A DNA stretch of 64,000 nt from an uncultured Planctomycetia bacterium (GTDB lineage: Bacteria; Planctomycetota; Planctomycetia; Pirellulales; S012-138). How positions within the stretch are numbered: position 1 is the first letter of the stretch; each line of letters opens with the position of its first letter. A program made the translations under genes and the position numbers. Below the pieces are notes generated by a model. That model was not told where the DNA came from. It was given only the letters and a program-made list of their open reading frames with translations, and did not search any database. This document shows positions 19,904 through 53,654 of this stretch, one piece after another. Location of the stretch: positions 59,004 through 123,003 of the forward strand of contig CAVSWR010000039.1 of NCBI GenBank assembly GCA_963731685.1. The letters are read 5' to 3'.

Positions 19904-19937
19904 AAGCCCTTTCGAGACGGTCGAGAGGGCTTTTTTT
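19904..19937 (+). terminator. Intrinsic terminator after copy 1
   Basis: aagccctttcga-gacgg-tcgagagggctt followed by a T run. Confidence 0.8.
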
Positions 19938-20205
19938 GCGCCATCACAGCGATTTGCGGCCAACCAGGCGGCAGAAACTCGTTGCACCATAAGACACTTT
20001 AAGAGTCTTGTTTGCCGCGGCCCGGAACGCTTCTCCGGCGTCAATCGACCGCCGCGCGTGATAAGCCCAATTCGTGCGCTCCGTCCGCGCTCGCATCGGT
20101 GCTGCTCAAGGACGTCCCGTCAACCTCGCGGGCTCTTGCCAGAATCCGTTTGGCAGGATCGGTGGGGATCCATTCGTTTTCTCGTTTAACGTGGGAGGCC
20201 ATACC

Positions 20206-21159: not shown

Positions 21160-21230
21160 AACCGTGTCTCATCGCCGGGCGCGTCGCTTCCGTTGGGACG
21201 CCAACCACTCTATGTGGAGGACCATATCTC

Positions 21231-22181: not shown

Positions 22182-22438
22182 CCGCCACGAATTCCCTCGC
22201 TGTGGCAAGGTGGGCGGCAGGAAGTTTGTCGCGAAAGTCGAGTTTTTTGGGCGCCGAGCAGCACGCTTTGGCGACGTTTATCAGCGGCCGCCGGCGATGA
22301 ATCCGTTTGATGCGCTTCTAAGGGGTAAAGATATTTTTCGCCAAAAAGGTGGCGTCAAAACGCGATTTATGGCACAATCGGTGTTTGGGGGTCGGTTGGG
22401 ATCAATTCTTTTACTCGTTTAAGGTGGGGGACCATCTC

Positions 22439-27024: not shown

Positions 27025-27595
27025 ATGAGCCGAGCCTACCGCATCCGCGTGCGAGAGACCTTGCGGCGCATGATCCGCGCCGGCGACTCGGTCACCTCGC
27101 AGCTCGAATTGCTGCAGATTCTGCCGGCGGCTGACATGGCCGAATTGCTGGCCGCGGAACTGCGCCGCCGCGGGTTCCAAGGCGATGACGGAGGCGCTGT
27201 CGCGCGAGCAAGACGGCGTTCGCATCACCATCGACGCCGGCAATGGCGCCGTCACGGTGCGCACGGTCGCCGATAAAGAGGTCGATCTGGCCAGCGAGCG
27301 AGAGGCCCGCGTCTACGACGATTCCGGCCCCCACCGCGAGGAGGCCAAAGAAAACCTGCGCAAACTGGCTCAAGACGACCTGGAGAATCAGGCCGCCGAA
27401 ATCCAACGGCGACTGCGGCAGGAGGCCACCGACCAACTCGAAGCGGCACTGGCTGACGTGCGGCGAGAACTCGATCAGGCCGTCAACCGCACCACGGCCG
27501 AAGCCTTGAAACGCAAGGCCGCGCAGCTTGGCCAAATCAAGGAGATGACCGACGATCCTCAAACCGGCTCGCTGACGATTGTGTTGGAGGTTTAG
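27025..27595 (+). CDS. Hypothetical partner protein of the AAA/M41 protease (frameshift near 27188)
   Basis: GGAGG RBS; MSRAYRIRVRETLRR...LLAAELRRRGF joins ORF 27185-27595; coiled-coil middle; C-terminus QLGQIKEMTDDPQTGSLTIVLEV. Confidence 0.75.
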
Positions 27596-27622
27596 CTTGG
27601 CCGCTAACGAGGCAGGTTCACG

Positions 27623-29721
27623 ATGTCCGCGCTCATTCCCGAATCGCAACTGCCGCGGGAGCTTTCGCCCGAGGCCTCGGTCGAGGCCGCCTATGTGTCG
27701 GAACTCGCGGAGATCGCCGGCGATTTGACGCGCGGTTTGCCGGCCCTGGTCGAGTGCGACAAGGACCTGGCCCCGTTCGTGTTCTTGAACGTTCGCGCCC
27801 GGCTCAAACAGGCGAACCTGCGCTGCCTGTATCTGGATGGCCGGCCGCGCGAAGGGCAAGCCGACGCCTCCCTGGGATTCGTCGGTTCGATGCTCGTCCA
27901 ACTTCGCGATGCGGTGCGCGGCGCGGTCGAGCAGCGCGTCGTCGTGCTCCCGCACCTCGACTTGCTCACCACCAGCCAAGGCGCCCTCACGGCCGAAGCC
28001 CGCGAGGTGATTCCGCTGTTGTATGAGAACCCCGATCTGGTGTGGCTTGGTTTCAAAGACCCGTCGTTTCCGCTGCCGCGCGTGATCGAGAACCTCTTTC
28101 CGCGGCGATATTCGCTGCTGGGGGTTCCCCGGCAGAGGCTGCAATATCTCATCACGCAAGCCGAAGCGCGAAGTTCGGGCGCGAGTTCAATCCTTGGGCT
28201 CTGTATAAATTCGTCTCCGGCGTGAACGCCGTGCGTTTGCGGCGGCTGCTCGATTCGTTGCAAGGCGAAGACTTTCCGGCCGACCCGCAACGGGCCTACC
28301 AGCAAATCCGCCAAGCCACGATGGGCGGTAGCCTGGAAGTTCCACACGTCGATTTGCACCGCGACATCGGCGGATACGAAAAAGTGAAACGCCGGCTCGA
28401 CGCCGAAATCCTCGATTGCCTCCGCCGCAAAGACCAACTCACCGACCCCGGGCAAATCCGCCGGCTGGAGGAACTCATTCCCAAGGGCATGATCTTCTGG
28501 GGCCCGCCCGGCACGGGCAAGACCCTGTTCGCCAAGGCCCTGGCTACGGCCATCGGCGCCGCCATCACGGTGGTCTCCGGGCCGGAACTCAAGAGCCGCT
28601 GGGTGGGCGAAAGCGAAGAAAACCTGCGGCAGATATTCCACCGCGCGCGGCAGTCGGCGCCTGCCATCATCGTGTTCGACGAGTTGGACTCCTTCGCCAC
28701 GGCCCGGGGAACCTACACCGGCTCGGGCGTCGAACACTCGATGGTCAACCAACTGCTGACCGAGATGGACGGATTCCACAGCGAGGAGTTGGTATTCGTC
28801 GTCGGCACGACAAACTTCGTAGAAAGCCTCGACCCGGCGCTACTGCGGCCCGGCCGGTTTGAATTCCTGTTGCACATTCCGCACCCCGCGGCCGACGATC
28901 GTCGCGAGATCCTCCGCATCTACAATCAGAAGATGGACCTGCGTCTGACGGAGGACGCCTTGGAATACGCCGTCCGCCGCACGGGCGAATGGGTCGAAGG
29001 CGCGGCGGCGGGCACGCGCTTCAGCGGCGACCACATCAACGCTTTGTGCCGGGCCATCGCCCGCATCCGGCTGCGCGAAGACGCGCTGGAGGAGGCGACC
29101 GTCGAAGCCGGCGTAGACCGGGCGATGACCGAGTGGATCGATCGCCCTGTAATGACCGCCAGCGAGGAGCGCGTGGTGGCCACGCACGAAGCCGGGCACG
29201 CGGTTTGCGCGCTGTTCTGCCCGCACTCGCCGCCGATCGACCGCATTTCGATCCGGGCCGACGTCGCGGGCGCCTTGGGATTCGTGCGATATCAAGACCC
29301 GGCCCATCGCTACGTGGTGACCCAAGGCGAGTTGCTGGACGACATCTGTGTTTTGCTGGGCGGGCGCGAGGCCGAGGCGTTGTTGCTCGACGATATGTCG
29401 ATCGGCGCCAGCGCCGACTTGCAGCGGGCCTCGGAGATCGCCAGGGCGCTGGTCGAGGAATTCGGCCTGGGGGGCGACGCTGTGGGCGTTTGCCGGTTCC
29501 TCTCCGACGCCGGCGACGGCCAGCGCCGCACCGGGCTTTCGCCCCAGCAGCTTGAAACGCTCGACTCGCGGGTGCGCGAAATCCTGGAGGAGCAGCGTCT
29601 TCGCGCCGCCGGGATCCTGCGGGAGCAGCAGACGGTCGTCGAGTGTCTGCGAGATTTGCTGTTGGAGAAGAAAGTCATCAACGCGCAGACGCTAGGCGCC
29701 TTGGTCGGACGCGGCTCGTAG
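27623..29721 (+). CDS. Soluble FtsH-like AAA+ ATPase/M41 zinc metalloprotease (frameshift near 28170)
   Basis: Walker A GPPGTGKT, pore loop SRWVGESE, Walker B IVFDELD, SRH LDPALLRPGRF, HEAGH, LLGGREAE, GASADL; no TM segments. Confidence 0.88.
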
Positions 29722-33195: not shown

Positions 33196-35013
33196 TTAGC
33201 CGCGGGCTTCTAGTTCTTCCCAACGAGCGTAGGATTCTTGCAGGGTCGCTTCGAGGGTTGCCAACTCCGCGTGCGCGGCTGTGATCGCGGCTTTGTCTTG
33301 TTTGAAGAACGAGGGGTCGGCCATCGCGTCGTGTAGGGCGGCGCGATGGCTTTCCAACCCCTCGATGCGTTCGGGCAATGCTTCCAACTCGCGCTGCTCG
33401 CGGAAGCTCAGCTTGGCCGGCTTGCCGGTTGCGGCCGAGGTAGTTTCGCGGGACTTGGTTGGGCGTTGCTGCGGCGCGGGTTCACGGTCGGAAGCCGTTG
33501 CGGCGTCGCGTTGGCGAACGTAGTCGTCGTAGCCGCCGTCATAGGTCTTCATGCGCCCCCGGCCCTCGAAGACCAGCGTGCTGGTCACCACGTTGTTGAG
33601 AAAGGCGCGGTCGTGGCTCACCAGCAGCAGCGTGCCGGCGTAGCTCGACACCAGTTCCTCGAGCAGCTCGAGCGTTTCCGCGTCGAGATCGTTGGTCGGT
33701 TCGTCCAGCACCATCACGTTGGACGGGTGTTTGAAGAGCCGCGCCAGCAACAAGCGGTTGCGTTCGCCGCCGGAGAGGAACTTGGCCTGTTGGCGGGCGC
33801 GCTCGGGCGTAAACAGGAAGTCCTGCAGGTAGCCGTAAATGTGCCGGCGCTGGCCGTCGATCAGCAGCGTGTCGCTGCCTTCGCCGACGTTTTCCAACAC
33901 GGTCGCTTCGTCGTCGATTTGCTGGCGAAGTTGATCGAAGTAGATCACCTCCAGCCGGGCGCCGTGCCGCAGTTCGCCTGAGGTGGGTTGCAATTCGCCC
34001 AGCAGCAGTTTCAAGAGCGTCGTCTTGCCGGAGCCGTTCGGGCCGATGACGCCGATCTTGTCGCCGCGCGTGATCAGGATGGAGAAATCGTCGACGATCG
34101 GCTCCGCGCCGTAAGAAAAGCAGAGATGCTTGGCTTCGATCACCAGGCGGCCGGAACGTTCGGCCTCGACCGCTTGCATGCTGACGTTGCCGAGTTGTTC
34201 CCGCCGCCGCCGCCGCTCTTCGCGCAGCTTTTTGAGCGCGCGGACGCGGCCTTCGTTGCGCGTGCGGCGGGCCTTGATGCCTTGGCGAATCCAGGCTTCC
34301 TCCTGCGCCAGCTTCTTGTCGAACAGCGCCTTCTGCTTCTCTTCGGCTTCCAAGGCGGCGGCTTTCCGGCTCAAGAACGTGGCGTAGTCGCAGGCCCAGT
34401 CGAACAGCCGGCCGCGGTCGATTTCGACGATGCGGGTGGCCAGGTTCTGCAGGAACGCGCGGTCGTGCGTGACGAAGACCAGGGCCCCGTCGAAGGACTT
34501 GAGAAACCCTTCCAGCCAGGTGATCGATTCGATGTCGAGATGGTTGGTCGGCTCGTCCAGCAGCAAGATGTTCGGCTCCGCCACCAGCGCCTGGGCCAGC
34601 AACGCGCGGCGTTTCATGCCGGACGACAACGTCGCGAAATCGGCCTGGCCGTCGAGGCTCATGCGGGCCAAGACGCGTTCGACGGTGCGCGTCGTTTTCC
34701 ACTCGGCGGCGTGGCCGTCGTCCGCCTCGCCCGCCTGGAGGTAGCCTTCGGTGACGATCTCGGCCACCGACCGCGAGTGCCCGGCGGGAACCTCTTGCAC
34801 CAGCCGCGCGACGCGCAGGCCGCTGGCGCGCTTGATTTCACCGTGGTCGGGCTCGACTTCGCCGGCGACGATTTTCATCAGCGTCGATTTGCCGGCGCCG
34901 TTGCGCCCGAGCAGGCCAATGCGCTGGCCGAGGTCGATGTCCAGATCGACCCCATCCAGCAGTTGGGGACCGCCCCAGGTGAAAACCAAATTGCGCAAAC
35001 TCAACAATGACAT
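33196..35013 (-). CDS. uup: ABC-F family ATPase (Uup-like)
   Basis: Two NBDs ([18 protein letters not shown]), linker EEAWIRQGIKARRTRNEGRVRALK, C-terminal KLSFREQRELEALP coiled-coil. Confidence 0.93.
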   Translation of the reverse strand: MSLLSLRNLVFTWGGPQLLDGVDLDIDLGQRIGLLGRNGAGKSTLMKIVAGEVEPDHGEIKRASGLRVARLVQEVPAGHSRSVAEIVTEGYLQAGEADDGHAAEWKTTRTVERVLARMSLDGQADFATLSSGMKRRALLAQALVAEPNILLLDEPTNHLDIESITWLEGFLKSFDGALVFVTHDRAFLQNLATRIVEIDRGRLFDWACDYATFLSRKAAALEAEEKQKALFDKKLAQEEAWIRQGIKARRTRNEGRVRALKKLREERRRRREQLGNVSMQAVEAERSGRLVIEAKHLCFSYGAEPIVDDFSILITRGDKIGVIGPNGSGKTTLLKLLLGELQPTSGELRHGARLEVIYFDQLRQQIDDEATVLENVGEGSDTLLIDGQRRHIYGYLQDFLFTPERARQQAKFLSGGERNRLLLARLFKHPSNVMVLDEPTNDLDAETLELLEELVSSYAGTLLLVSHDRAFLNNVVTSTLVFEGRGRMKTYDGGYDDYVRQRDAATASDREPAPQQRPTKSRETTSAATGKPAKLSFREQRELEALPERIEGLESHRAALHDAMADPSFFKQDKAAITAAHAELATLEATLQESYARWEELEARG

Positions 35014-35081
35014 TCCGCGAATTTCCTCGTTTGACCGCAGCCGAAAGTTGCACAGCGCCACTTTTACATTTTTCACCGGGA

Positions 35082-35164
35082 ATACAAGCACGACGCGCTA
35101 GCGAGTGCGTGCGTGCGTGAGTTCCGACGTCACCGACTCACTTGCTTGCGCTGCGTGCTTGTAT
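35082..35164. repeat. Inverted REP-like pair
   Basis: atacaagcacgacgcgctagcgagtg ... cacttgcttgcgctgcgtgcttgtat; a half-copy occurs near 25182-25209. Confidence 0.6.
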
Positions 35165-35188: not shown

Positions 35189-36703
35189 CTAATCTCTCGC
35201 CCGCGGCGCCAAATCCGCGACGCTGGCCAGCGGATCCAAAGGATAGATCGGGCGGCGCAGTTTGCGGTAATCGAAACAGGCAAAGTCGGGCCGATGCACG
35301 CCGGGCGTGTCGGCGTCGAAAATATGACTGGCCAACGGCCCCAAGTCGGCGCGAAAGTGTACCGCGCTCTTCACGACCAACAGCCGCTGCCTTTCGGGCG
35401 AGACTCCCACAATGCGCAGCATCTCGGCGTCGAGGAGTTGCGTCCGCCGCGTGCTCACAGCCACCTGAACACCGCCGACGACGAGTAGCGCCATGCGGCC
35501 CAGGTCGCCGGGCAGCCCGCGCCGCATCGGCCCCCGATGGACAAACCGTCCATCGCTGAGGCAGCGGACGTAAGCGTCGGCCTCAATGGGGGCGCCGTGC
35601 CGGTCGTCGGTCTTGCCGCCGAGGCGGACGCGGATGGTCTTCCCCACGCCGGCCTCATGCGCCTGGGCCGCGGTTTCGGGATCGACAATCAGCCCCACCA
35701 CGGCGTCCGGCAGGCCGGCTTCGATCAACGCCCGCAAGACGACCGTGCCGTCGCTGGGCGCGCCTCCGCCGGGGTTGTCCGATCCATCGGCATAGATGAT
35801 GAGTCCCTCGCTTTGCCGTTTGACGAACTCGATCAGTTCGTTGACTGGCGTCAAGTTTGGCTGCAGCGCGTCGCGCAGCTCCCACACCATGGCGGCCAGT
35901 TCTTCCGCCGCGCGGTCCGCTAGAGCGGCGTCGCCGTCGGTTGTCACGAGCACACTGCAGCCGGCGTCGGCGATATCCGCGAAGGGGAAGCCCATGGCGA
36001 TGGTCGCGGTCAACACGCCAGGCCGCCGCTTGAGTTCGTGCAGCCGCGCGATGAGGCTTTGCATCGGTTCGCGGAGCGTGCATTGCATCGGCGGCAGCGT
36101 GATCAGCGGCAGTTGGCGGTAGGCCATGCGGGCGCGAACTCGCCCGCGCGGTCCGTGTCAACAGTTCGACCGCCTCGCGGCCCCGCTCCCGCATATCGAC
36201 GTGGGGGTACGTGTCGAAACCGATGATCGCGTCGGCGGCCGCGGCCATTTGCGGCGTGATGTTGGCGTGCAGGTCGAGCGTGACGACCAGCGGCGTGTCA
36301 GGTCGGAGCGTCTCGCGGACGGCCGAAATGAAGGCGCCTTCCGCGTCGTCGTGGGCCTCGGTCACCATCGCGCCGTGCAGGTCGAGCGCCACGCCGTCCA
36401 CGGGGCCCAGTTCGCGCAGGCGGCGCAGAAAGATTTCCAGCAGATGATCGAACGCCTCCTGCCGGACGACGCCGGCGGGCTGCGCGGTGCGCAGAGCAAC
36501 GGCGCGATTTCGACGCCGGCTCCGGCGGCGGCTTCGAGGTATCCGCCGTGGATGGTGCCCGTGCCCTGGTAAAGGCGGCGGATTGTGTCTCCGCCGGCGA
36601 AATCGGGCCCACACTCGCTATCGCGTTGGAAGTCGGCCAGGGTGGTGGGAGTTTGGGCGAAGGTATTGGTTTCGTGTTGTACGCCGCCGGTGGCGATCCG
36701 CAT
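35189..36703 (-). CDS. M81 family metallopeptidase (MlrC-like), frameshifts near 36480 and 36135
   Basis: MRIATGGVQHETNTF, LDLHGAM, TLDLHANI, YPHVD, DNPGGG, VVKSAVHFRAD. Confidence 0.9.
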
Positions 36704-37131
36704 GGTAAACGCTCTCGCTGGACGATTCTTTGCGTGTTGCCCGCTCTTTGCGTGTTGCCCGCATCGTCAAGCAGCATAGCGTTTCCAGCAGTTTCGCACA
36801 CGAGCCAAACAAGGTGCCGGCTTGGTTCACGATTTCGTGTGCTGTCGTTGTTTGATCGTGAGCCGCAGGTGATCGCGGTGGCGGTGCGCTCGTACGCCTG
36901 CGGCTGACGGTTCAACGAGGGAATTGTTCTTCCGCCGAGGATTGAAGGGAATGAAACGCCAATTGCCGCGGCGAAGATGTTGAAAAGATGGCCCGTTGAA
37001 GCATACCATTAGGGGTTCATTCGCTCGCTCATGTCTGGCGGCGGGGCGTTTTCCTTTATTTTGCACTCGAACGCACAACTCGGGCGCACAACTCGGGCGT
37101 GGTTCGCGCCTTTCGAGCATCAGGAGCCAAT

Positions 37132-38959
37132 ATGACGACCGACCATAAATTCCAGGTCAATTTGCGCGGCGTGATCGACCTGCTCTCAAATCACCTTTAC
37201 AGCGGGCCGCAGGTTTACGTGCGGGAGTTGTTGCAGAACGCGGTCGATGCGATTGTGGCCCGCAGGCGCCACGAGCCGGATCACCATGGCGACATATCGT
37301 TGGAGGTGATCCAAGGCGCCGACGGGGCGGCCACGCTCATCGCCCGCGACAACGGCGTGGGGCTCGCCGAGGAGGAGATTCACCAGTTCTTGGCCACCAT
37401 CGGGCAGTCGTCCAAGCGAGAATCGCTCTCTCGCGACGACTTCATCGGGCAATTCGGCGTGGGGCTCTTGTCGTGCTTCGTGGTCTGCAACGAGATCGTG
37501 GTGATTACCCGCTCGGTCAAGGAACCCGGCGCCATCGAGTGGCGGGGCCGCTCCGACGGCACGTACGGCCTGCGGAAGCTCGAGCAGGATTTTGAGCCGG
37601 GCACGCAAGTCTATCTGCGCGCCAAACCCGGCTGCGAGGAGTTCTTCGAGCCGGAGTTCGTGCGTTCGACCGCGGCGCACTTTGGAGGGCTGCTGCCGCA
37701 CCCGATCGTCGTTTCGGCCGGCGACGAGCGCTGGCGGATCAACGAGCCGGCGCCGTGGCGCGTCCGACTACGAAAGCGAAGAGCAGCGCCGCGACGCGCT
37801 GCTGGCCTACGGCCGCGAGCTGTTTGGAGTCGAGTTCTTTGACGCCATTTTATTGAAGTCGCAGGCCGGCGGCGTGGAAGGCGTGGCGTTTGTGCAACCC
37901 ACTTCGGCCGGCCTGGCCGTCAAGAACACGCACCGCGTTTATCTGAAGAACATGCTGCTCTCCGAGCAAAGCGAGAATCTGCTGCCCGACTGGGCGTTCT
38001 TCGTGAAGTGCGTGGTCAACGCCACCGACTTGCGGCCCACCGCGTCGCGCGAGTCGTTCTATGAGGACGACAGCCTGCAAGCGGCGCGCGACTCGCTCGG
38101 CCAGTGTCTGCGCCGCTACTTCTTGGACCTGGCCCGGCGCGACCCCGCACGGCTCAATCACTTGATCGCTGTGCATCACGTGGCGATGAAGGCGTTGGCC
38201 CTGGACGACGACGAATTCTTTGACATGTTCATCGACTTGTTACCGTTTGAAACCTCGCTGGGCGAGATGACCCTCGGCGAGATCACCGCGCAGCAACCGG
38301 TGGTGCGCTACGTCGCCTCGCGGGACCAGTTCCGGCAGGTTTCGGGCGTGGCCTCGGCGCAGTCGATGCTAGTCGTCAACGCCGGCTACATCTACGACAG
38401 CGACCTGCTGGAAAAGCTGTCCTACACTCGCCCGGACCAGCAGGTCGAAGAAGTCGACGTGGCGGAACTGTCGCAGAGCTTCGAGGATCTCAGCCTGCGT
38501 GAACGCGAGCGCGTGTTTGAGTTTGTCAAATTGGCCGACCTGGTGCTGCAGCCGTTCAAGTGTTCGGTCGAAATCAAGAAGTTCGCGCCCGAGCCGCTGC
38601 CCGCGCTGTACACGGCCAACGACTCCGCGGCCTTTTTGCGCTCGGTGGACCAATCAAAAGACGTGGCCGACGAGTTCTGGTCGGGCGTGCTGGACCGGGT
38701 CGCCGGCGATCCTGCCTCCGACGCCTATTCGCAGTTGTGTCTGAACTATCGCAACCCGCTCATCCGCAAGATCGCCGAATTGCAGGACCGGCGGCTGATT
38801 CGGCGCAGCGTCGAGATGCTCTATGTGCAGGCGCTGCTGCTGGGCCACTATCCGTTGAAAGCGCAAGAAATGAAACTGCTCAACGAGGGGCTCTTAGCCC
38901 TGATCGAGTACGGCGTCGACGCCCGGCAGGGGGACGCACAATCCGGAGAGGGCGCATGA
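37132..38959 (+). CDS. HSP90-family (short HtpG-like) GHKL ATPase, frameshift near 37765
   Basis: FQVNLRGVIDLLSNHLYS, RELLQNAVDA, DNGVG, IGQFGVGLLSCF, LLPDWAFFV, LRPTASRE, LNYRNPLI. Confidence 0.92.
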
Positions 38960-40084
38960 GCACGGCCGACTTTCAGCAACTTATCTGGCAAGCGCGCGGC
39001 GCTGAGTCACGGCGACGCGAAGGTGGCGCTGCTCGAGGAAGCCGTGCGCATGGCCGACAGCCTGGGCGACGTCGACGCCGGTTATCGAGGGCGCATCGAC
39101 GTTGGCCGAAGCGGCCACGTTTGCTGGCCATGACGAACGCGCGCTGGTCGCGTTCGCCTGGTGCCTGGCCTTGAGCGACGACAATCCCGGACGGTTTGAC
39201 GCCAGGGATCTCATGTGGCGATACAAGTGGATTGTGGGAGGCCTGTCGAGTTTTCCTCAAATTAGCTTGTCCAAGATGCACGAAGCGCTGGAGGACTTTC
39301 ATCGGCGCTGTCGGGACCACGGTTATGGAGAGCGTTCGTACTTATCCTTGCGTTGGTACACTGAGTGGAATACCGGCAAGATTCAAGAGGCCAAACAGGC
39401 GTATCGCAAAATGCGCCAAACCTCGCACGACTCGCTCACCGATTGCGCCGCCGGCGAGCGAGACCGCGAAGTGGAGTGGTTCGCCGCGCTGCGCGAAGAC
39501 GAGAAGGCCCTCGAGTCGGCGGCGCCCATCGTTCGCGGGCGTTTCTCATGCAACAACGTGCCTGCACTCACGTTCGCGCGATTGCTCGAGGTGCATTACC
39601 GGCTGGGCGATTTGGACGCCGCGCTGGCATGCCATCGCTCGGGCTATCGCCTCGTCGCGCGTAATCGCGCGTATTTGGAGTCCGCCGCCAAGCACCTCAG
39701 CTATTTGGCCGAAACGGGCGAGTTGGCCAAGGGCCTCAAACTCGTGGAACGCCACCTGCCTTGGGCGTTGGACAGTTTCGATCTCGAAGCGCGTCTTGAC
39801 TTCTACGGCGCGTGCTGCCGGTTGACGCGGCTGCTGAGCCGCGCAAACGCCCCCGGCGGAAGCTCCGTCTGCCAAAGACGTTTCCGGTCTACCGCGACGA
39901 CGACACTTACGACACCGGCGAGTTGGCCGAATGGTTTCAACGCGAGGCGGAAGAACTGGCCCGGCGGTTCGACGAGCGCAATGGGAACGACTATCGATCG
40001 AGCCTGCTGGAGGAGCGCATCTCCGGCGCTTTAATGCGGCCGCCCGGCGCCGAGCGAATTGACGCGCAGTCGGAACGATCTTGA
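38956..40084 (+). CDS. HSP90-associated alpha-helical (TPR-like) protein, copy 1 (frameshifted)
   Basis: ATGA overlap with the HSP90 stop; MSTADFQQLIWQAR...ERALVAFAWCL...LMWRYKW...DCAAGE...ARRFDERNGN. Confidence 0.8.
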
Positions 40085-40150
40085 TGGCATGGCTGTGAGC
40101 ACGACGCGCGAGCGAGTGGGGTTTGACGGCGCATAACCAGGAGAAGACGT

Positions 40151-41251
40151 ATGAGCACGGCCGACTTTCAGCAACTTATCTGGCAGGCGCGCGCCCTGAG
40201 TCACGGCGACGCGAAGGTGGCGCTGCTCGAAGAAGCCGTGCGCATGGCCGACAGCCTGGGCGATGTCGACGCCGGTTATCGAGGGCGGATAAAGCTGGTT
40301 GAGGCGGCCACGTTTGCCGGCCATCAGGAACGCGCGCTGGTCGCCTTCGCCTGGTGCCTGGCCCAGAGTGACGCCAATCCCGGCCGGTTTAACGCTTGGC
40401 AACTTATGTGGCGCTACAAGTGGATGGTGGGTAATTTGCCGAGTTTCCCTCAGATTGCTTTGTCAAAGATGCATGCCATGTTGGAGGACTTTCATCGGCG
40501 CTGCCGGGAACACGGTTACGGAGAGCGTCCGTATTTGACCCTGCGCTGGACCAATGCGTGGGAATCCGGCGATTTTCAAGAGGCAAAACAGGCGTATCGC
40601 GAAATGCGGGACACCTCGCGCGAGGCGCTCACGGATTGCGCCGCGTGTGAGCGAAACCGCGAAGTGCAGTGGTTTGCCGCGCTACGCGAAGACGAGAAGG
40701 CGCTGAAACTGTCCGAGCCGATCGTTCGCGGGCGCTTGTCCTGCGACAGAAGTGCCCGAAATCACGTTTGCGCATTTACTTGAGGTGTTTTGCCGGCTAG
40801 GCGATTTAGACGGGGCGCAGCTCAGCCATCGCTCGGGCTATCGCCGCATCGCGCCAATCGCGCGTATTTGACTTCCACCGCCAAGCACCTCAGCTATTTG
40901 GCCGAAACGGGCGACTTGGCGAAGGGTCTCAAGCTCGTGGAACGTCATCTGCCTTGGGCGCTGGACAGTTTCGATCTCGAAGCGCGTCTTGACTTCTACG
41001 GCGCGTGCTGCCGGTTGACGCGGCTGTTGAGCCAGCGCAAACGCCCCCGGCGGAAGCTCCGCCTGCCAAAGACGTTTCCGGGTTATCGCGATGACGACAC
41101 CTACGACACCGGCGAGTTAGCCGCCTGGTTCCAACGCGAGGCGGAGCAACTGGCCCGGCGGTTCGACGAGCGCAATGGGAACGGCTATCGATCGAGCCTG
41201 CTGGAGGAGCGCATCTCCGGCGCTTTAATGCGGCCGCCCGGCGCCGAGTGA
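40151..41251 (+). CDS. HSP90-associated alpha-helical (TPR-like) protein, copy 2 (frameshifted)
   Basis: AGGAG RBS; near-identical termini to copy 1; DCAACE motif. Confidence 0.8.
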
Positions 41252-41478
41252 ATTGAAGGGTGGCGTGACGCACGATCCGGCTCGCGTGGGCGGCTCGCGT
41301 GGAATGAATTCCACGCTACTGGTCTGCCGGCGTCTTAGTCGCAGAGCGACGACGCGCAGCGATTGCTAGTGGTCCGTCAAGGTTGAATCTACCAGTTCGA
41401 TCGGGAGGGCGAGGCCACTGCCGAGCCGGTGCAAGTAATGGCGTCCAATCTTATTCCGGCTCAGCAGGAGCCTCGCCC

Positions 41479-42962
41479 CACTGCGTTAAACATCTTTGGG
41501 AACCTTCTGCTTGGCCGCGCGGAGGATGCGATAGATCGATGTGTGACCGCCTTCGATTCGTTTCTTGGGCGCCGTGGATTTCGGCTTCTTCTTCTTCGGC
41601 GATTTCACCCAACGGTCTTCCCACACCGGAGCAAACAGTTCTTGAAGATACGCCTTGAGATCATTCGCCGTGGCAAAGGGTTGAAAGTGATCGACGACCG
41701 TCTGCTGGTCGATCAACGTGGAAAGCGAGACCAGTTCGCGATGGACGTCGTAAAACAGTTCTTCAACGGAGATCGTCTCGGCGGCCCGGCGCTGCGCGTT
41801 GGCGATGTAGGCGCGGACGACTTGAATCAGGTTGTAAAGCAACATGCAGAAGCCCAGTTGGAAGATCGTGCCCTCGGGCGAACTGCTGATCAACTGCTGC
41901 AGATGAAAGACTTCGGTCACTTGCTGAAAGACCCGTTCAATGCCCCACCGCGCCAGATAGCCAGCCAGCAGATCGGCGGCCGGGTATTTATCCGCATCCA
42001 ACAGGTTGGTGATCAGAATGATGTCTTCTTCCCCATCACGATACAGCGTGATGCGCCGCACGTAGAGCCGTTTGTTTTTCGCCTTACCGAGATAGCCCCA
42101 CTCCTCCGTGTAACGCCGGCCCTGCTGGTCCACGCCTTCCCGGACCGGCACGTCCTCCGCCCGTTCGAAGCTGTTTTTGGGGTGAAAACGGATCAAGTAC
42201 GCATCGTTGCCCTCGGAAAACAGGACGGGTTGCCGCAGATCGCAGAACTGGCTGTCTGCAATCCACAGTCGCCGTCGCGTCGAGCGTTCCCGCACCTGCG
42301 ACAAGAGTCCTGGAATCAGCGGCGCGTCGTTCGTTTCACCGTCGGGATGTGCGTTGAACGCGATGATCATCCCTTTCCGCAGGTCCAGCGCGGCCAGGCC
42401 TTTTCCGCCCAGCGGCGTTCCGGCAAACTCACGAGCCGGCTTCAGCCGTTTGGCCGCGCGTTTGATCTTCTTGCCATCGACGGCAAACACGTCGAACGCC
42501 CGAAAGCTCGCCGGCAGCGAAATACCGGCGCCGTTGGGAAAGACCTCCCGCAGGCGATCGGTGGCGCTGGCGAAGAACCCCAGACTCAACGAAATCGGGA
42601 GGCGTCTGAGCTTGCCGTAGGCGGCCTGGACCGACACCGTCATATTGTCCAAGCACTTCATCGCCTGATGGGCGCTTCCGGCGTGTTCGAGCAATGCGTC
42701 TTGAATCAACGACACCATGTTGGAAAACGACAGCTCCGATTCATACGAGCGACCGCGATATTTTTCGAAGACCTCGCCCAGGAACCCCGGTTCCAAGACC
42801 CACGACAACAACGACAACGTGCCATCCGCCAAAGGCAACCGCGCGAGAATTTTCTTCGAAAAGCCGTCCATGGCTCGCTCCAATGAGAGAAATCTGATTC
42901 CATGAACCGTAAATCATTCTCATTTCACGGGTTTGTGTAAATAGAACATGTTTAACGCAGTG
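41479..42962 (-). mobile_element. IS4-family insertion sequence with 15-bp perfect TIRs and 9-bp target duplication
   Basis: CACTGCGTTAAACAT (41479-41493) and ATGTTTAACGCAGTG (42948-42962); direct repeat GCCTCGCCC at 41470-41478 and 42963-42971. Confidence 0.93.
41486..42883 (-). CDS. IS4-family DDE transposase (intact ORF)
   Basis: AVDGK (D1), WIADSQF (D2), YLARWGIERVF (IS4 Y-2-R-3-E motif); stop codon lies within the TIR. Confidence 0.92.
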   Translation of the reverse strand: MERAMDGFSKKILARLPLADGTLSLLSWVLEPGFLGEVFEKYRGRSYESELSFSNMVSLIQDALLEHAGSAHQAMKCLDNMTVSVQAAYGKLRRLPISLSLGFFASATDRLREVFPNGAGISLPASFRAFDVFAVDGKKIKRAAKRLKPAREFAGTPLGGKGLAALDLRKGMIIAFNAHPDGETNDAPLIPGLLSQVRERSTRRRLWIADSQFCDLRQPVLFSEGNDAYLIRFHPKNSFERAEDVPVREGVDQQGRRYTEEWGYLGKAKNKRLYVRRITLYRDGEEDIILITNLLDADKYPAADLLAGYLARWGIERVFQQVTEVFHLQQLISSSPEGTIFQLGFCMLLYNLIQVVRAYIANAQRRAAETISVEELFYDVHRELVSLSTLIDQQTVVDHFQPFATANDLKAYLQELFAPVWEDRWVKSPKKKKPKSTAPKKRIEGGHTSIYRILRAAKQKVPKDV

Positions 42963-43683
42963 GCCTCGCCCTCCCATGACTTGAACCCGCAAGTTCATGA
43001 TTGACAGAGCACTAGCTGGGAGGCCAGCCCCACGATAGACGGCAGCAACTGAAACCATGGTGTAGCCGGTTGAATGACGCTCCACCGACTTGCGTCGGTG
43101 GTATCTTGCCGTGCGTCCGCAACCCGATATCGCGGGCGCGTTAATCCTTGCAGTGTGGGAACTTGAGCGGTCGTTGGCGGCGGATTATGATGCCAGAGGC
43201 GCCGTTGGGAGCGGCGTCATCAAGGAATGTTGGGGCATGCAGGCAATGAACGAGAGATACGAAGCTCTTTGGTTTCTTGGGAATGTTCGCAAACAGGGTA
43301 ACGGCGCTGAGCGGCCGCCGATGGGGCGGCTGATGGGACTCGGCGATGGTTTAACTTGCGTCGGTTTCGCGCTTGTGTTGGTTTCTTAATTCACTGTAAG
43401 GCGACTTGCGCCGGCGGATTCGCTTGAAACACCTATAGGCGTTTCGGCGCGTCGTCGTACAATAGGCGTTTTAGGCCGCGCGTGCGGAAGCGGGATGCGG
43501 CCCGACAGCGCCCTGAAGCGCTTGAATCGCACGCCGGCGCCTTTGCCGGGTCGTGGCGGAAACGCCGTTATACGCATGCGCTCGTTCACGCTTAGAACCC
43601 CGGGGCGCCGTTGACCGCCGCAACTCGTTAGGTTGAAAACATCATTCACCGCTGGTGGCCCAGCCGCCCGGGGAGCCGCTGCG

Positions 43684-44919
43684 ATGCAAGCTTTTGAAGC
43701 CACTCGATACTACTTCGACCGAGCCGCCGACCATCTGGACTTGAGTCATAACATTCGCACGTTGTTGCTGACGCCGAAGCGCGAAATCCAAGTGCAGGTG
43801 TCCATCGAGCGCGACAACGGCGAGGTGGTGACCTACATCGGCTACCGGGTGCAGCACGACAATTCACGCGGTCCGATGAAAGGCGGCTTGCGGTTCCATC
43901 AAGAAGTCGATCTGGACGAAGTGCGTTCGCTGGCCGCGCTGATGACCTGGAAAACGGCCGTCGTCGACATTCCCTACGGCGGCGCCAAGGGCGGCATCGC
44001 GGTCGATACGCGCCACCTCAGTCGCCGCGAACTGGAACGCATCACGCGCAAGTTCGTCGACGAACTGCACGACCTGGTCGGCCCGGACAGCGACATCCCC
44101 GCGCCGGACATGGGCACCAACGCCGACGTCATGGCGTGGTTCATGAACCAGTATTCCAAATACCACGGCTTCGGCCCCGCCTGCGTGACCGGCAAACCCG
44201 TCGAGTTGTACGGCCTGCCCGGCCGCGAAGAGGCCACCGGCCGCGGCGTGGGCATCCTGACCTTCAAGTTGCTCAGCCGGCTGGGACGCAAGCCCAACAA
44301 CACGCGGGTGGCCATCCAAGGGTTTGGCAACGTGGGATCGCACGCCGCGAAGTTTTTGAGCGAGGCCGACTTCAAGGTGGTGGCCATCAGCGACGTCAGC
44401 GGCGCCTACTACCGGCCCGAAGGCCTCGACGTTCACGACGCCTTGCGCTACGCCTTCAAGCACAACTACAGCCTGTCGGGCTATGAAAAGGCGCAGCCGA
44501 TTTCCAACGAGCAGCTATTGACGTTGGACGTCGACGTGCTGATCCCCGCGGCCCTGGGCGGAGTGTTGACCGAAAAAAACGCGCGGGACGTCAAGGCGGA
44601 GATTATCATCGAAGCAGCCAATGGTCCCACCTGGCCGGAGGCCGACGCCATTTTCGAGGAACACGGCATCACGGTGCTGCCCGACATTTTAGCCAACGCC
44701 GGCGGCGTGACCGCCAGCTATTTCGAGTGGGTGCAGAATCGCCAGTATTACCGATGGGGCATCGATCGCGTGCGGCAAGAGTTGGACCGGGTGCTCAGCC
44801 AAAGTTTTGAGAGCGTGTGGGAACTGTCGGTCGAGAGAAACGTGAGCCTTCGAACCGCGGCGTACATTCTGGGTATCGGCCGCGTAGGCCGAGCTACCAT
44901 TTTGGGAGGAAGCGTATGA
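43684..44919 (+). CDS. gdhA: Glu/Leu/Phe/Val dehydrogenase (glutamate dehydrogenase)
   Basis: [59 protein letters not shown]. Confidence 0.95.
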
Positions 44920-50194: not shown

Positions 50195-50585
50195 CGACGA
50201 CGTGGACAGCTCCCGCCGCGCGTTGAGGCCAACTCTTGGTCAACCAATTCAGTGAGTTTGCCGCATCACCACAAAGCGGCAACGTGGTAAAACTGCCGGA
50301 AATTGACGGCGAAGTTCTCTGTGCGCCGTTTAGCGAATTCCGTCTGTGTGTATTGGACGCTCTGGACATGGCGTTGGTAACCTACGGGATTGTGCGGTTG
50401 AACTACTTACTCGACTGACCACCACATGGCTCGACATCGCAGCCGCCCCGCCGCTTGCTCCCGATCTCGATGCCCGGTTCAATGGCTGAATTCCTCAGAC
50501 GCTGGCGAGGCGGACGCATGATTCCACGACACCAGAGTCAGCAAGTATCCAGAGGTCCGTTACCGGAACCGAAGGGAATGACCCC

Positions 50586-51748
50586 ATGACCGCCTTTGAA
50601 GGGATACACGTCCACGGCTTCCGGCGTCTGTACGACGTCAACCTGAGGCTCAAACCGCTCAACGTCATGATCGGCGCCAACAGCAGCGGCAAGACGACGA
50701 TCCTGGACGTCTTCACGCTGCTGGCTGCGTCCGCCTCGGGCGACCTTGCCGAGACAATCAGCCACTTCGGCGGCGTGGATGGCAATTTGACAAACCTGTC
50801 GATTGCCAACGCCGGCAAGGCCCGATTCATGTCGTTTGAACTGGGTATGCCGGTCTCCGAACAAAACCCGATCGACTACCGCATAACCTTGTCGCAACAG
50901 GGCGCCGGTTACGAAATCTCCGATGAGACGTTGAGCCAACAGCGGACGCCGAGCCCGCCGCCCTTCAAGCACATCGAATCGCACCGCGGCAACGTCCGCT
51001 ACTTCGTGCCGCAAGATGGGCTCCAGCCTCCCACTTGGGATTACAACCAAGGTGAGTCCGCTCTTTCGCAGGTTCCCAAGATGTTTCAGGAGCCCGAGGA
51101 TTTCCGGAAGCGGCTGGCGTCGTCCACTCATTCCACATGCTGGACGTATCACAGCGAGCGCCCGTGCGACTCCCTCAACCGATGCGGGACGCAAAGCTGC
51201 CCGGTCACGACGGAGAAGACCTCGTGTCGTGTCTGTACACGCTGCGCGAGACTGATCCCGATGCGTTCGAGGCCATTGGGGATAGCTTGCGGGCCGGATT
51301 CCCGAGCTTTGAGCGGCTGAGTTTCCCGCCTGTGGCGGCCGGCACGCTGGCGATGACCTGGAAGGATACGACCAGCAAGAACCCCTTCTTCATGCACCAG
51401 CTTTCGGAGGGGACGCTGCGGTTTCTCTGGCTGGTGACATTACTTCAAAGTCCGGGTCTGACGGCCATCACCTTGATTGACGAACCGGAGGTAAGCCTGC
51501 ACCCGGAACTCTTGTCGCTTCTGGCCGACTTGATGCGAGAAGCGTCGCGGCGGACTCAGTTGATCGTTGCGACGCACGCGGATCGACTCGTTCGTTACCT
51601 CAAGCCGGAAGAAGTGGTAACGATGAACCTCAACGACGACGGCGCAGCCGAGATGATCTGGGCAGATGAACTCGACCTGGATCAGTGGCTAGATGAATAC
51701 ACGCTGGATGAGGTGTGGCGACTCGGCCGCCTGGGAGGCCGATCGTGA
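50586..51748 (+). CDS. AAA_21/AbiEii-like ABC-type ATPase (frameshift near 51135)
   Basis: Walker A GANSSGKT, signature LSEGTLRF, Walker B LIDEPEVSLHP, ATH. Confidence 0.88.
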
Positions 51749-52356
51749 GAATTGCCATCCTCGTCGAAGGCAAGACCGAGCGGGCCTTCAAGCCGCACCT
51801 CCAAGCGTTTCTCAAAAGACACCTCGAAGGAAAAATGCCGAAGCTGGACATTGTTCCGTTTGATGGTCGGCTGCCGATAGAAAAGAAACTCCAGCGGATT
51901 GTCCAGCGCCTGCTGAATGACAAGAAGCGCCCGGCGGACGCCGTCATCGCCCTGACCGATGTCTACCCGGACTACACGACTGCGCAAGACGCTAAGACAA
52001 AAATCAAGGCATGGGTTGGTGATGAAGAACGCTTCTATGTTCACGTGGCCCTGCACGACTTCGAGGCTTGGTTGCTTCCTTACTGGCAGAAGATTCAGAA
52101 GCTAACCGGGAGCAATCGCAAGCCGCCTGGAAAAGACCCGGAGAAGGTGAATCATGAGAATTCACCAGCGAACCGATTGGCCGAAGTCTACCGAACGGGC
52201 GCCAAAACCAAGAGCTATAAGAAAGCGATTGACGCGGGCGCCATTCTTCGCGGCGAGGATTTGTCGGTTGCAATCGACGCGTGCCCTGAACTAATGGGGT
52301 TTATCAACTACATCCTCAAACTGTGCGGTATCAAAGCCAGAAATCTGCTCAAGTGA
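51745..52356 (+). CDS. DUF4276-like TOPRIM-fold protein, partner of the ATPase
   Basis: ILVEGKTE, ALTDVYP, HDFEAWLL, PEKVNH, YKKAID, ACPE; GTGA overlap with the ATPase stop. Confidence 0.8.
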   Translation: MRIAILVEGKTERAFKPHLQAFLKRHLEGKMPKLDIVPFDGRLPIEKKLQRIVQRLLNDKKRPADAVIALTDVYPDYTTAQDAKTKIKAWVGDEERFYVHVALHDFEAWLLPYWQKIQKLTGSNRKPPGKDPEKVNHENSPANRLAEVYRTGAKTKSYKKAIDAGAILRGEDLSVAIDACPELMGFINYILKLCGIKARNLLK

Positions 52357-52514
52357 ACCCAGCACTGCAACCCTCCAGCGATCGTCCGCGCGACCCCAGC
52401 GAGGTTATACCCCGTTCGGGGCTATGAACGGCATTTTGCCCGTTATGCAGGGGTAAAGAAAGCGGCGCGGTTGGCGGCGGCTCGGCGGGATCCTCGCCCT
52501 CCGGGGGGCGCAGC

Positions 52515-53597: not shown

Positions 53598-53654
53598 GCG
53601 TCTGGCTCCCGAAGAGGAAAACGGCGAAACAAGCCGAACATGCGACCCGGACCG

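Follow-up and report, generated by a model that had tools for sequence, protein, structure and literature searches.

A predicted two-gene chaperone operon of an Hsp90 paralog and a tandemly duplicated partner in an uncultured Planctomycetia bacterium

Solved eukaryotic structures include TPR proteins bound to the C-terminal regions of Hsp90, and the EEVD tail of eukaryotic Hsp90 is bound by the TPR clamp of co-chaperones. HtpG and TRAP1 are regarded as operating without co-chaperones in the available part of PMC9312948. Beside group A, Chen et al. 2006 (PMC1525184) distinguish HTPG groups B and C, and Press et al. 2013 (PMC3708813) distinguish hsp90B and hsp90C; in the available portions of both papers these are ancient, long-branching bacterial Hsp90 paralogs, which are classified and then set aside ("ignored throughout the analysis"), with no partner gene mentioned there. 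A literature search returned no paper on an Hsp90 paralog paired with the partner described here. The minor Hsp90 lineages have been classified, not studied; one of them is encoded here with a conserved, translationally coupled partner that is predicted to bind it.

The Hsp90 paralog and its surroundings

The window (the whole stretch of DNA that was analysed, 64,000 nt) is positions 59,004-123,003 of contig CAVSWR010000039.1 in assembly GCA_963731685.1 of an uncultured Planctomycetia bacterium (Pirellulales; S012-138). Its features, in window positions, are as follows.

37132..37764, + strand: Hsp90 paralog, N-terminal GHKL ATPase part, frame 1 (Pfam HATPase_c_3, 1.4e-09; HATPase_c, 2.2e-06)
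37759..37766 (near 37763), + strand: frame break of the Hsp90 paralog, frame 1 to frame 2, 2 nt from GCGC
37766..38959, + strand: Hsp90 paralog, middle and C-terminal domains, frame 2 (Pfam HSP90, 2.5e-07, match 37592-38959)
38956..38959, + strand: ATGA overlap, the Hsp90 stop TGA (38957-38959) sharing bases with the ATG of partner copy 1 (38956-38958)
38956..40084, + strand: partner copy 1, 376 aa read through, single-base breaks at 38998, 39097 and 39840
39441..39458, + strand: DCAAGE of copy 1, Gly (GGC versus TGT) in place of the second Cys of the motif
40140..40143, + strand: GGAG, ribosome-binding-like, 7 nt 5' of the copy 2 ATG, repeat family D6
40151..41251, + strand: partner copy 2, 366 aa read through, breaks at 40749 (+1) and 40854 (-1)
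40634..40651, + strand: DCAACE of copy 2, intact Cys-x2-Cys, as read from the sequence
41264..43140, no strand assigned: nested mobile elements (blastn against the genome; Pfam DDE_Tnp_1, 2.6e-13)

The Hsp90 paralog is carried not by one uninterrupted frame but by two overlapping ORFs in different frames (37099-37842 and 37592-38959), whose matches to the NCBIfam model NF010683 ("HSP90 family protein", 604 positions) abut at positions 211 and 215. The N-terminal piece matches positions 4-211 with 292 bits and the C-terminal piece positions 215-602 with 486.4 bits, the latter alone exceeding the curated cut-off of this equivalog (455 bits); an intact relative, L012, scores 736 bits. The window ATPase thus matches over its full length the model of the non-HtpG bacterial Hsp90 paralogs (NF010683 / PRK14083; groups B and C collectively). 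Such genes are sporadic in the phylum, with 7 of 201 genomes over the cut-off. Housekeeping HtpG (NF003555, cut-off 371 bits) was ruled out, the window pieces scoring 122.3 and 45.7 bits and intact L012 161.5 bits; the preliminary description, made from the sequence alone, had also set this HtpG-like GHKL ATPase apart from housekeeping HtpG.

The motifs RELLQNAVDA, DNGVGL, GQFGVGLL and TASRESF of the window occupy columns that are invariant in 31 aligned family members, and the family-invariant residues E32, N36, D74-G76-G78, G107-G110-G112 and R308 are all kept. These we take to be the catalytic Glu and Asn, the DxGxG and GxxGxG motifs, and the catalytic Arg of the middle domain, the last (in TASRESF) being encoded within 37766..38959 together with a predicted partner-docking helix (by homology to L012 residues 502-527). 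Judged jointly with the operon reading set out below, the window gene probably codes for an Hsp90 of a minor and ancient lineage, competent as an ATPase. Among solved structures, the best sequence matches are E. coli HtpG and TRAP1 (2iop, 4ipe and others; E 1e-52, profile positions 4-383), with which the paralog has the ATPase motifs in common and which it matches in the N-terminal and middle domains, whereas its C-terminal ~220 residues have no sequence match among solved Hsp90s.

A scan of 36600-41500 for promoters and terminators gave results near chance (one promoter-like site, 0.8 expected; eight terminator-like sites, 5.5 expected). The CIRCE heat-shock operator, in the form of the motif that we assumed, was found upstream of the Hsp90 paralog at 0 of 70 loci and in 0 of 77 controls, an absence that presumably says little outside HrcA-using taxa.

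Among the neighbouring genes, those for ABC-F (33196-35091) and GDH (43633-44919) and the transposase are intact, and the adjacent M81/MlrC peptidase gene (35192-36703) is spread over three frames by two breaks. The window also encodes FtsH-ternary-system and AAA_21/DUF4276 genes. The nest of an IS and MITEs that had been noticed directly downstream is borne out: a 1.49-kb IS (41478-42963; 5-6 near-identical genome copies), with an IS4-type DDE transposase gene (41486-42883, - strand; seven matches across the genome), splits the MITE-like short repeat B (41365-41478 and 42957-43015; ~30 genome copies by blastn), which in turn splits short repeat A, also MITE-like (41264-41369 and 43012-43140; >60 genome copies by blastn).

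The partner family and its linkage to the Hsp90 paralog

A survey with the partner alone as query found 80 loci, of which 77 were assessable and three lay at a contig edge. The Hsp90 paralog is directly upstream on the same strand in 73 of the 77 and absent from four; the loci belong to Planctomycetota, Myxococcota, Acidobacteriota, Bacillota, Deinococcota and Chloroflexota. From the Hsp90 side, the partner is adjacent in four of five relatives and in four of six genomes of the phylum sample. Gene overlaps of 4 nt or 1 nt occur in 53 of the 68 loci with both genes called, by a heuristic choice of starts. The ATGA overlap of the window and this adjacency bear out two proposals of the preliminary description, that the ATPase is translationally coupled to a helical protein of ~370 aa and that the two form a dedicated module; the predicted complex (below) agrees with the second. 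Pairing is not obligate in cis, as three unlinked partner genes in one genome (G002) and Hsp90 paralogs with other neighbours in two more (G061 and G216) illustrate, and next to a distant NF010683 member (L105) lies a 751-aa protein that hhalign separates from the ~370-aa partner family (probability 0.1).

The tree mixes phyla (quick IQ-TREE with SH-aLRT support), and synteny is kept through Myxococcaceae and Archangiaceae. Clustering of flanking ORFs, which is confounded by shadow ORFs in GC-rich DNA, indicated no third conserved gene, only the synteny within Myxococcota (at most 29 loci). Around 22 diverse loci, housekeeping genes predominate in the flanks, and defence- or toxin-antitoxin-like genes occur in three.

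The partner family comprises ~2,000-3,000 sequence clusters of all-helical proteins of ~370 aa, and 96 homologs match it with E 2.3e-163 to 1e-19. It is without a Pfam or NCBIfam model: three pieces of the window partner matched no Pfam family at E <= 0.01, and three intact relatives matched no NCBIfam family. The AF2 model (pLDDT 94.2, pTM 0.91) has 19 helices, and the predicted fold is a TPR-like superhelix nearest to MalT domain III (1hz4_A, Z 21.7, rmsd 4.6, 322 of 366 residues aligned), three Z units above the next match; further matches are APPBP2 (Z 18.7), NprR (17.8), Rap (16.0) and AimR (13.2), in a comparison in which repeat proteins gain high Z through their common arrangement. The predicted superhelical fold is that of MalT domain III, with the RRNPP-type sensors (NprR, Rap, AimR) among the best structural matches, but identity is 9-12%, the partner has no attached NTPase or DNA-binding domain, and Pfam TPR_MalT (PF17874) does not match it at E <= 0.01, whereas a true TPR_MalT protein in L038 was matched at 2e-36. 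Foldseek against the PDB gave generic TPR/PPR matches only (TM 0.3-0.5), and the partner profile, searched against PDB sequences, matched only designed PPR proteins, at the level of the repeat. The earlier label "TPR-like" consequently holds for the fold and not for the sequence, which matches no Pfam TPR model.

Residues D36, R48 and W70 and a C-terminal F-D-x-R-N motif (L012 numbering) are invariant in the partner family, and both window copies keep D, R, W and FDERNGN. A Cys-x2-Cys...Cys triad (C169, C172 and C204, L012 numbering) is kept in 52 of 54 family rows, and the two exceptions lose all three together. In the window the triad reads C-C-C in copy 2 and C-G-C in copy 1, this Cys being the only family-invariant residue not kept in the window genes. 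Of the earlier proposal of a metal or redox site altered in one copy, the conserved Cys site and its alteration in copy 1 stand; a metal or redox role is a conjecture.

Predicted docking of the partner

A model of the Hsp90 paralog with its partner, a step that the preliminary description had suggested, scored ipSAE 0.81, 0.79 and 0.81, compared with 0.00 in three controls; of 157 solved complexes, 116 attain the mark used for this score, as do 2 of 215 mismatched pairs. The runs have at least 82% of contacts in common, and partner pLDDT is at least 83. The predicted interface joins Hsp90 residues 502-527 and 573-575 to partner residues 33-37, 62-76 and 102-119 (L012 numbering), taking in the family-invariant D36 and W70, and on this model the C-terminal domain of the paralog is probably where the partner docks. 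The score expresses the confidence of a model and was obtained with alignments built for this analysis; some recall from solved eukaryotic TPR-Hsp90 complexes may contribute to it, but such recall is made less likely by the lack of any sequence match between the C-terminal 220 residues of the paralog and solved Hsp90s. Conservation specific to the interface was not seen between the window copies (19 of 23 interface positions versus 85 of 96 neighbouring positions).

The predicted arrangement resembles that of the eukaryotic TPR co-chaperones (Hop/Sti1, PP5, FKBP51/52) in placing a helical-repeat protein on the C-terminal region of Hsp90, but the partner lacks the canonical TPR motifs of Hop, PP5 and FKBP51/52 (no Pfam TPR match). 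The window paralog, unlike EEVD-type Hsp90s, ends in ...GDAQSGEGA, with no conserved C-terminal tail in 31 aligned members, and where Hop-type proteins bind EEVD, the predicted contact here is a helix inside the C-terminal domain (residues 502-527).

The reading that we favour, and hold to be probable, is a two-gene chaperone operon, the second gene of which was recently duplicated, with a partner that assists the ATPase cycle as an adaptor or co-chaperone. The most conserved N-terminal repeats of the partner would dock on the conserved amphipathic helix that lies in the paralog's divergent C-terminal domain, as modelled; the remainder of the superhelix, its most variable part and the seat of the Cys-x2-Cys...Cys site, may bind a client, peptide or signal; and the partner may in this way serve the ATPase cycle of the Hsp90 paralog. 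A bolder version, offered tentatively, is that the partner is the first genuine bacterial Hsp90 co-chaperone family, in which a variable, metal- or redox-switched Cys3 groove presents clients and repeated duplication, tandem or dispersed, supplies one ATPase with several interchangeable adaptors of different client ranges, copy 1 here and copy 1 of L036 being independent of the Cys switch.

Alternatively, the partner may be a dedicated client or regulator, either a sensor of metal or redox state that depends on the Hsp90 paralog to load its Cys3 site, keep it reduced or switch it, or an on/off switch of the ATPase. The loss of the triad as a unit in two family rows fits such a role, and translational coupling predicts near-equal amounts of the two proteins, as is typical of stable complexes; a 1:1 client is, however, hard to square with ATPase genes that have two or three partner paralogs each. 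Fur-family regulators adjoin the operon in L029 and L011 (in L011 a 147-aa ORF, identified by reading only), and OsmC/MarR, DJ-1 and Usp neighbours occur in single loci, but neighbours are inconsistent between loci. With the predicted interface in the N-terminal repeats and not in the Cys region, this explanation is unlikely.

Duplication, frame breaks and alternative explanations

The partner gene is present twice in tandem, the repeats (direct-repeat families D1-D6) being offset by 1193-1195 nt. In pairwise alignment A1 the copies have a mean column identity of 92%, and identity is mosaic: 96% in 38999-39096, 81% in 39103-39402, 79% in 39558-39660 and 93-94% in 39663-40062. The copies differ in the middle (YLSLRWYTEWNTGKIQ versus YLTLRWTNAWESGDFQ), where copy 1 has DCAAGE and copy 2 has DCAACE and a later SC, and the preliminary description of a tandem duplicate near-identical at the 5' end and over the 3' third is accurate. 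Read through, the copies are stop-free and 84% identical, and with dN/dS 0.27 both are under purifying selection. The phrase "centrally diversified" applied to them earlier is correct in that the middle differs, but positive selection there was rejected: dN/dS is 0.32 in the middle, the highest 40-codon window reaches 0.84, and no window exceeds 1. At the near-identical ends dS is 0.17-0.20, versus 0.50, and therefore the likeness of the ends is attributed to gene conversion, not selection. The tandem duplication is recent, with gene conversion homogenising the 5' 140 nt and the 3' third while the middle diverged and copy 1 lost one Cys of the triad.

The 13% nucleotide divergence, the distinct junction of copy 2, and tandem partner pairs in eight other genomes argue against the duplication being an artefact of assembly. 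Copy 2 has its own GGAG before the second ATG, which came with the 3' end of the Hsp90 gene when this was duplicated (family D6). Tandem pairs occur in 6 of 80 loci as well as in G008, G126 and the window, and three dispersed copies occur in G002; duplication of the partner recurs independently in at least six lineages, so that the theme of partner paralogs noticed earlier in this one locus is a recurrent one. A tblastn search of the genome (E 1e-5) found neither the partner nor the Hsp90 paralog elsewhere.

Six single-base indels interrupt the three genes, one in the Hsp90 paralog, three in copy 1 and two in copy 2, the last two (40749 and 40854) bracketing 35 codons that are out of frame and include a stop (40781-40783). 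Frame breaks also occur in rpoB, rpoC, dnaE (two), gyrA, secA and ileS of the same assembly, and uvrA-like genes on contigs C8 and C29 have three breaks each in ~2.8 kb (about 1 per kb). The sequence GCGC, which was noticed at the local breaks first and then tested on other genes, lies within 3 nt of five of the six local breaks (versus 18.9% of positions) and within 10 nt of 8 of 10 narrowly placed breaks elsewhere (versus 27.5% of random windows). Because essential genes are likewise broken and the GCGC context is common to the breaks, the six almost certainly arose as errors in the assembly consensus and not by decay of the genes, and other frameshifts of this assembly, which cluster at GCGC, should be treated in the same way. 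Reads from one run (5% of sampled words, 85% likeness) covered nine short pieces of the contig and no indel site or copy junction.

Were the frameshifts real, the locus would be a decaying remnant, with the Hsp90 paralog and both partner copies as pseudogenes in a plastic region invaded by IS and MITE elements. The six breaks in 4.1 kb are about four times as dense as those of the six essential genes (7 in ~20 kb, ~0.35 per kb), and two more lie in the adjacent M81/MlrC gene, but the uvrA-like genes and the essential single-copy genes are broken as well, the assembly has a completeness of 87.6% over 48 contigs, and the GCGC context of the breaks is genome-wide. Several neighbours (ABC-F, GDH, transposase) are intact and the IS/MITE nest is directly downstream, as decay would have it, and the sporadic occurrence of the NF010683 type is as expected of a dispensable gene; nevertheless, no nonsense codon interrupts the partner and Hsp90 sequence when it is read through (3.0 kb), the dN/dS of the copies is that of constrained genes, and the catalytic and family-invariant residues are all kept apart from one Cys. 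Decay is accordingly an improbable explanation, somewhat more so than the client or regulator.

Least probable by a further step is an anti-phage or conflict system, with the TPR-like protein as sensor of an invader protein, in the manner of STAND/Avs, and the GHKL ATPase as signal transducer: the partner folds most like the sensor domain of MalT, a STAND ATPase, and the peptide-sensing NprR, Rap and AimR come after it, the distribution is patchy, the tree mixes phyla, the putative sensor is recurrently duplicated, and FtsH-ternary-system and AAA_21/DUF4276 genes are present in the window, but neither protein has an effector domain (nuclease, NADase, pore or protease), the match of the ATPase to PADLOC TmtA models (2.1e-12) spans only residues 10-126 (~117) of the shared GHKL fold, the partner pieces and the C-terminal part of the ATPase match no PADLOC-DB 2.0 family at E <= 0.1, no third gene is conserved, the 22 diverse flanks are mostly housekeeping, synteny in Myxococcaceae and Archangiaceae suggests vertical inheritance there, and no dN/dS window exceeds 1. 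A role in defence, raised as a possibility in the preliminary description, is not borne out by these results.

In the favoured reading of a chaperone operon, it is the partner and not the ATPase that is recurrently duplicated, a pattern expected of specificity-defining adaptors, and the partner, as modelled, is a candidate for the kind of helper that bacterial Hsp90 is generally described as lacking. The question of whether Hsp90 helpers existed before eukaryotes becomes directly testable, and intact operons are present in the culturable Myxococcus xanthus and Paenibacillus.

The Hsp90-family operon in the window

An Hsp90-family gene of this genome (G000; 48 contigs, 9.05 Mb, completeness 87.6%; window at C39:59004-123003) is followed by two tandem genes for a TPR-like helical protein, here called the partner, and on their 3' side by an IS nested in a repeat of about 165 nt that is itself nested in a repeat of about 320 nt (41264-43140). 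All elements named in the preliminary description (the Hsp90 gene, the ATGA overlap, the tandem copies and the nest of IS and repeats) are present in the window sequence:

37132-38959, plus strand: Hsp90-family gene
38956-40084, plus strand: partner copy 1, about 370 codons, starting inside the Hsp90 stop codon (ATGA at 38956-38959)
40151-41251, plus strand: partner copy 2, 66 nt after the end of copy 1
41264-41369 and 43012-43140: outer repeat of about 320 nt, holding the repeat of about 165 nt; over 60 genomic copies
41365-41478 and 42957-43015: short repeat of about 165 nt, split by the IS; about 30 copies in the genome
41478-42963: IS of 1.49 kb, with a DDE transposase gene at 41486-42883 on the minus strand

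A repeat search of the window found six families of direct repeats in co-linear order, offset by 1193-1195 nt, across the two partner copies, which have a mean column identity of 92% in pairwise alignment.

The ATPase belongs to a family that is already known and named. Its two pieces match positions 4-211 (292 bits) and 215-602 (486 bits) of the 604 positions of NF010683, the NCBIfam model 'HSP90 family protein' (cut-off 455), and score only 122 and 46 bits with the model of the housekeeping HtpG, far under the cut-off of 371. Of the ATP-binding and catalytic motifs, every one that is invariant among 31 aligned family members is kept. The ATPase also has an invariant cysteine, Cys478. The closest solved structures by sequence are E. 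coli HtpG and TRAP1 (E 1e-52), matched over the N-terminal and middle domains only; the last ~220 residues have no sequence match among solved structures. Hsp90 genes of this type are sporadic: 7 of 201 genomes in a phylum-wide sample, G000 among them, exceed the cut-off, and 5 of 40 nearer relatives give strong matches. G000 has a single copy. Ancient bacterial Hsp90 paralogs, groups B and C, are described by Chen et al. (2006; PMC1525184) and by Press et al. (2013; PMC3708813); in the latter paper they were 'ignored throughout the analysis'.

Several other genes of the window may be recorded here. An M81/MlrC-type metallopeptidase gene (35192-36703, minus strand) adjoins the operon upstream and is divided among three frames (profile positions 1-71, 67-209 and 182-286 plus MlrC_C). 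An fvmX5 domain (7.1e-33; 'FtsH ternary system domain X5') and, after it, a gene for an FtsH-like AAA and M41 peptidase (27074-29718, plus strand) are both parts of a predicted FtsH ternary conflict system. A candidate defence islet (50490-53654) consists of an AAA_21/AAA_15 ATPase gene broken into two frames (50490-51317 and 51056-51745), a DUF4276 gene (51712-52353), and, on the opposite strand, a D12-class adenine methyltransferase gene (52518-53654). Four successive DUF1559 genes (18836-23389, plus strand), three with a prepilin-type methylation motif at the N-terminus, form a run typical of Planctomycetota.

The partner family and its predicted complex with Hsp90

The partner matches no model in Pfam, NCBIfam or PADLOC, and its family is to date without a name: 96 homologs of 223-404 aa found by word-indexed search are all unnamed or 'hypothetical', and a profile search of 1.84 billion representatives gave 3,029 proteins at E up to 1e-3, 2,630 at 1e-10 and 2,001 at 1e-30, nearly all of 355-390 aa. 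Longer forms (791-1161 aa) have extra canonical TPRs, and those that are named come from Actinomycetota.

At 73 of the 80 loci that were retrieved by partner alignment alone, the Hsp90 paralog is directly upstream on the same strand; the partner is at a contig edge in three and beside unrelated neighbours in four (L036, L047, L082 and L097). These loci span Planctomycetota, Myxococcota (including Myxococcus xanthus, Corallococcus and Archangium), Acidobacteriota, Bacillota (Paenibacillus and Thermoactinomycetaceae), Deinococcota and Chloroflexota. Culturable carriers of the intact pair include M. xanthus, Corallococcus and Paenibacillus methanolicus. With heuristic start calls, 53 of 68 loci show a gene overlap of 4 or 1 nt, and the gap never exceeds 41 nt. 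Four of the five nearer relatives that carry the Hsp90 paralog have the partner downstream; the fifth and nearest (G002) has none beside its Hsp90 gene. Its three partner genes (L098, L099 and L100, on G002:C143, C78 and C222), whose flanks were covered to 1.5 kb, are intact, encode 372-377 aa and are unlinked. Among six other carriers in the phylum-wide sample, the partner is adjacent in four and not adjacent in two. G126 has two partner copies, and in G140 the order is reversed, with the partner upstream (L106, 6293-7366, minus strand; hhalign 99.95%). In G216, one of the two without it, a distant Hsp90-family member is followed by an unrelated 751-aa protein (L105, 1734-3992, minus strand).

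The AlphaFold model of the partner from an intact relative (L012, which supplies the residue numbering; pLDDT 94.2, pTM 0.91) has 19 helices arranged in hairpins. Foldseek returned only generic TPR/PPR solenoids (TM 0.3-0.5), and in an exhaustive VIA search MalT domain III came top, at Z 21.7 and rmsd 4.6 over 322 residues, ahead of APPBP2, NprR, Rap and AimR, superhelices that bind ligands or peptides. D36, R48 and W70 are invariant in the family. Near-invariance extends to the tryptophans W93 and W97, to K96, to a V-A-F-x-W block and the F-D-x-R-N-G motif of the C-terminus, and to three cysteines, the pair C169-x2-C172 and C204. In the secondary structure of the model the cysteines cap helices 9 and 11 at their N-terminal ends, and the triad is retained in 52 of 54 family rows. 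The exceptions, L036 copy 1 (2430-3602) and the protein P0093, are sisters in a small clade and lack all three, a joint loss suggesting that the cysteines may form one site.

The complex of the L012 Hsp90 paralog with its own partner, predicted from alignments of our own, gave ipSAE values of 0.81, 0.79 and 0.81, versus 0.00 in three controls; on benchmarking, the ipSAE mark was attained by 116 of 157 solved complexes and by 2 of 215 mismatched pairs. The runs agree in at least 82% of their contacts, and partner pLDDT was at least 83. The predicted interface joins partner residues 33-37, 62-76 and 102-119, which lie within the most conserved region of the family and have D36 and W70 among them, to Hsp90 residues 502-527 and 573-575, which comprise a conserved F-x-R-S-x-E-x-x-K-E-x-x-D-x-L-W-x-G-V-L-D segment, a helix that includes R504, and a G-H-x-P loop. 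Since solved structures of eukaryotic TPR proteins with Hsp90 exist, some recall by the model is possible, a concern tempered by a paralog C-terminal domain unlike in sequence to any Hsp90 in those structures. The model thus supports, short of proof, binding of the partner to the Hsp90 paralog, and together with the gene linkage it bears out the dedicated Hsp90-partner module proposed in the preliminary description.

The best-supported reading is that a specialised Hsp90 works with a dedicated helical-repeat partner that docks onto its C-terminal domain; the variable, cysteine-bearing superhelix of the partner would bind the substrate of the machine, and duplicated partners could serve as alternative adaptors. 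Observation covers how the locus is built, the family to which the ATPase belongs, gene linkage, fold, conserved residues and how the copies arose; binding, an adaptor role and the character of the cysteine site are inferred. That the partner is instead a client or regulator of the Hsp90 appears unlikely.

Frame breaks and the history of the two copies

The operon contains six frame breaks: a frame change near 37763 in the Hsp90 gene, surplus bases at 38998 and 39097 and a missing base at 39840 in copy 1, and a surplus base at 40749 and a missing base at 40854 in copy 2. The M81/MlrC peptidase gene, the AAA_21 ATPase gene (50490-51745) and an interrupted DUF7133 gene of the window are also broken. 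Essential genes of the assembly are affected as well, with seven breaks per about 20 kb in six genes: two in dnaE and one each in rpoC (G000:C42:58378-58390), rpoB, gyrA (C30:2179-2182), secA and ileS (C29:248131-248137). Two uvrA-like genes have three breaks each within about 2.8 kb; a double uvrA frame of 7 kb is break-free. The latter (G000:C28:280717-286509, minus strand) holds two complete uvrA-like units in a single 2332-aa open frame, a fused or tandem double UvrA.

GCGC occurs within 3 nt of five of the six local breaks, versus 18.9% of positions in the region. Because this motif was spotted post hoc, it was tested on other genes, where it lies within 10 nt of 8 of the 10 breaks that profile matches place within about 20 nt, against a background of 27.5% in random windows of matched length. 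A sequence context common to breaks in essential and non-essential genes points to systematic errors in the consensus, with methylation of GCGC as a possible cause, rather than independent mutations, so that pseudogene calls in this assembly need reads. The six local breaks are almost certainly assembly errors. Once three bases are taken out and N is placed at two positions, each copy is open throughout, giving 376 aa for copy 1 and 366 aa for copy 2. Breaks at the locus are about four times as dense as in the essential genes, and for this reason a slim chance is retained for real gene decay there.

The read-through copies are 83.6% identical (306/366), unevenly distributed over residues 1-125 (104/119), 126-250 (86/124) and 251-365 (106/111). 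Nei-Gojobori estimates between them are as follows.

Divergence of partner copy 1 from copy 2
Whole gene: dS 0.34, dN 0.092, ratio 0.27
Codons 1-46: dS 0.17, dN 0
Codons 47-245: dS 0.50, dN 0.16, ratio 0.32
Codons 246-366: dS 0.20, dN 0.02, ratio 0.10

These values indicate purifying selection on both copies; positive selection was not seen, the highest dN/dS among 40-codon windows being 0.84, and the earlier idea that selection had diversified the centre was not upheld. The ends are also younger than the middle at silent sites, and the C-terminal third is not specially conserved in the family (mean pairwise identity 0.29-0.30, versus 0.42 at residues 61-125). Gene conversion between the tandem copies, sparing the middle, is thus the best explanation for their near-identity at the ends. 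This middle contains the cysteine site, which is altered in copy 1 (DCAAGE), as had been proposed; a consensus error is unlikely there, since GGC in copy 1 against TGT in copy 2 is a two-base difference.

The proposed paralogous partners recur as tandem pairs at six of the 80 loci (L019, L022, L036, L040, L043 and L084) and in G008 and G126. No cultured carrier encountered in this analysis has two copies. In a quick maximum-likelihood tree, copies are sisters in the window, G008, L019 and L040 (starred support 99-100) and in L084 (support 89); the duplication shared by L022 and L043 is older, and in L036 the two copies do not pair as sisters. Thus, the partner has been duplicated independently at least six times, and the ATPase not at all.

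Gene neighbourhoods of the pair

A literature search found no paper on the pair of Hsp90 paralog and partner. New findings are the tandem duplication and the fact that it recurs independently, the mosaic attributed to gene conversion, the loss of a cysteine in one copy, the predicted docking site, and the assembly's pattern of errors linked to GCGC. No third conserved gene was found beside the pair in the flanks of 22 diverse loci. A defence role, raised in the preliminary description, is very improbable: defence- or toxin-like genes occur in only three of these flanks, which are mostly housekeeping, and PADLOC offered no match for the partner. At one of the 22 loci, in a member of the Chloroflexia (L093, 7192-10839), dnaK (Hsp70) and hrcA lie directly beside the operon, the sole proteostasis neighbours among them.
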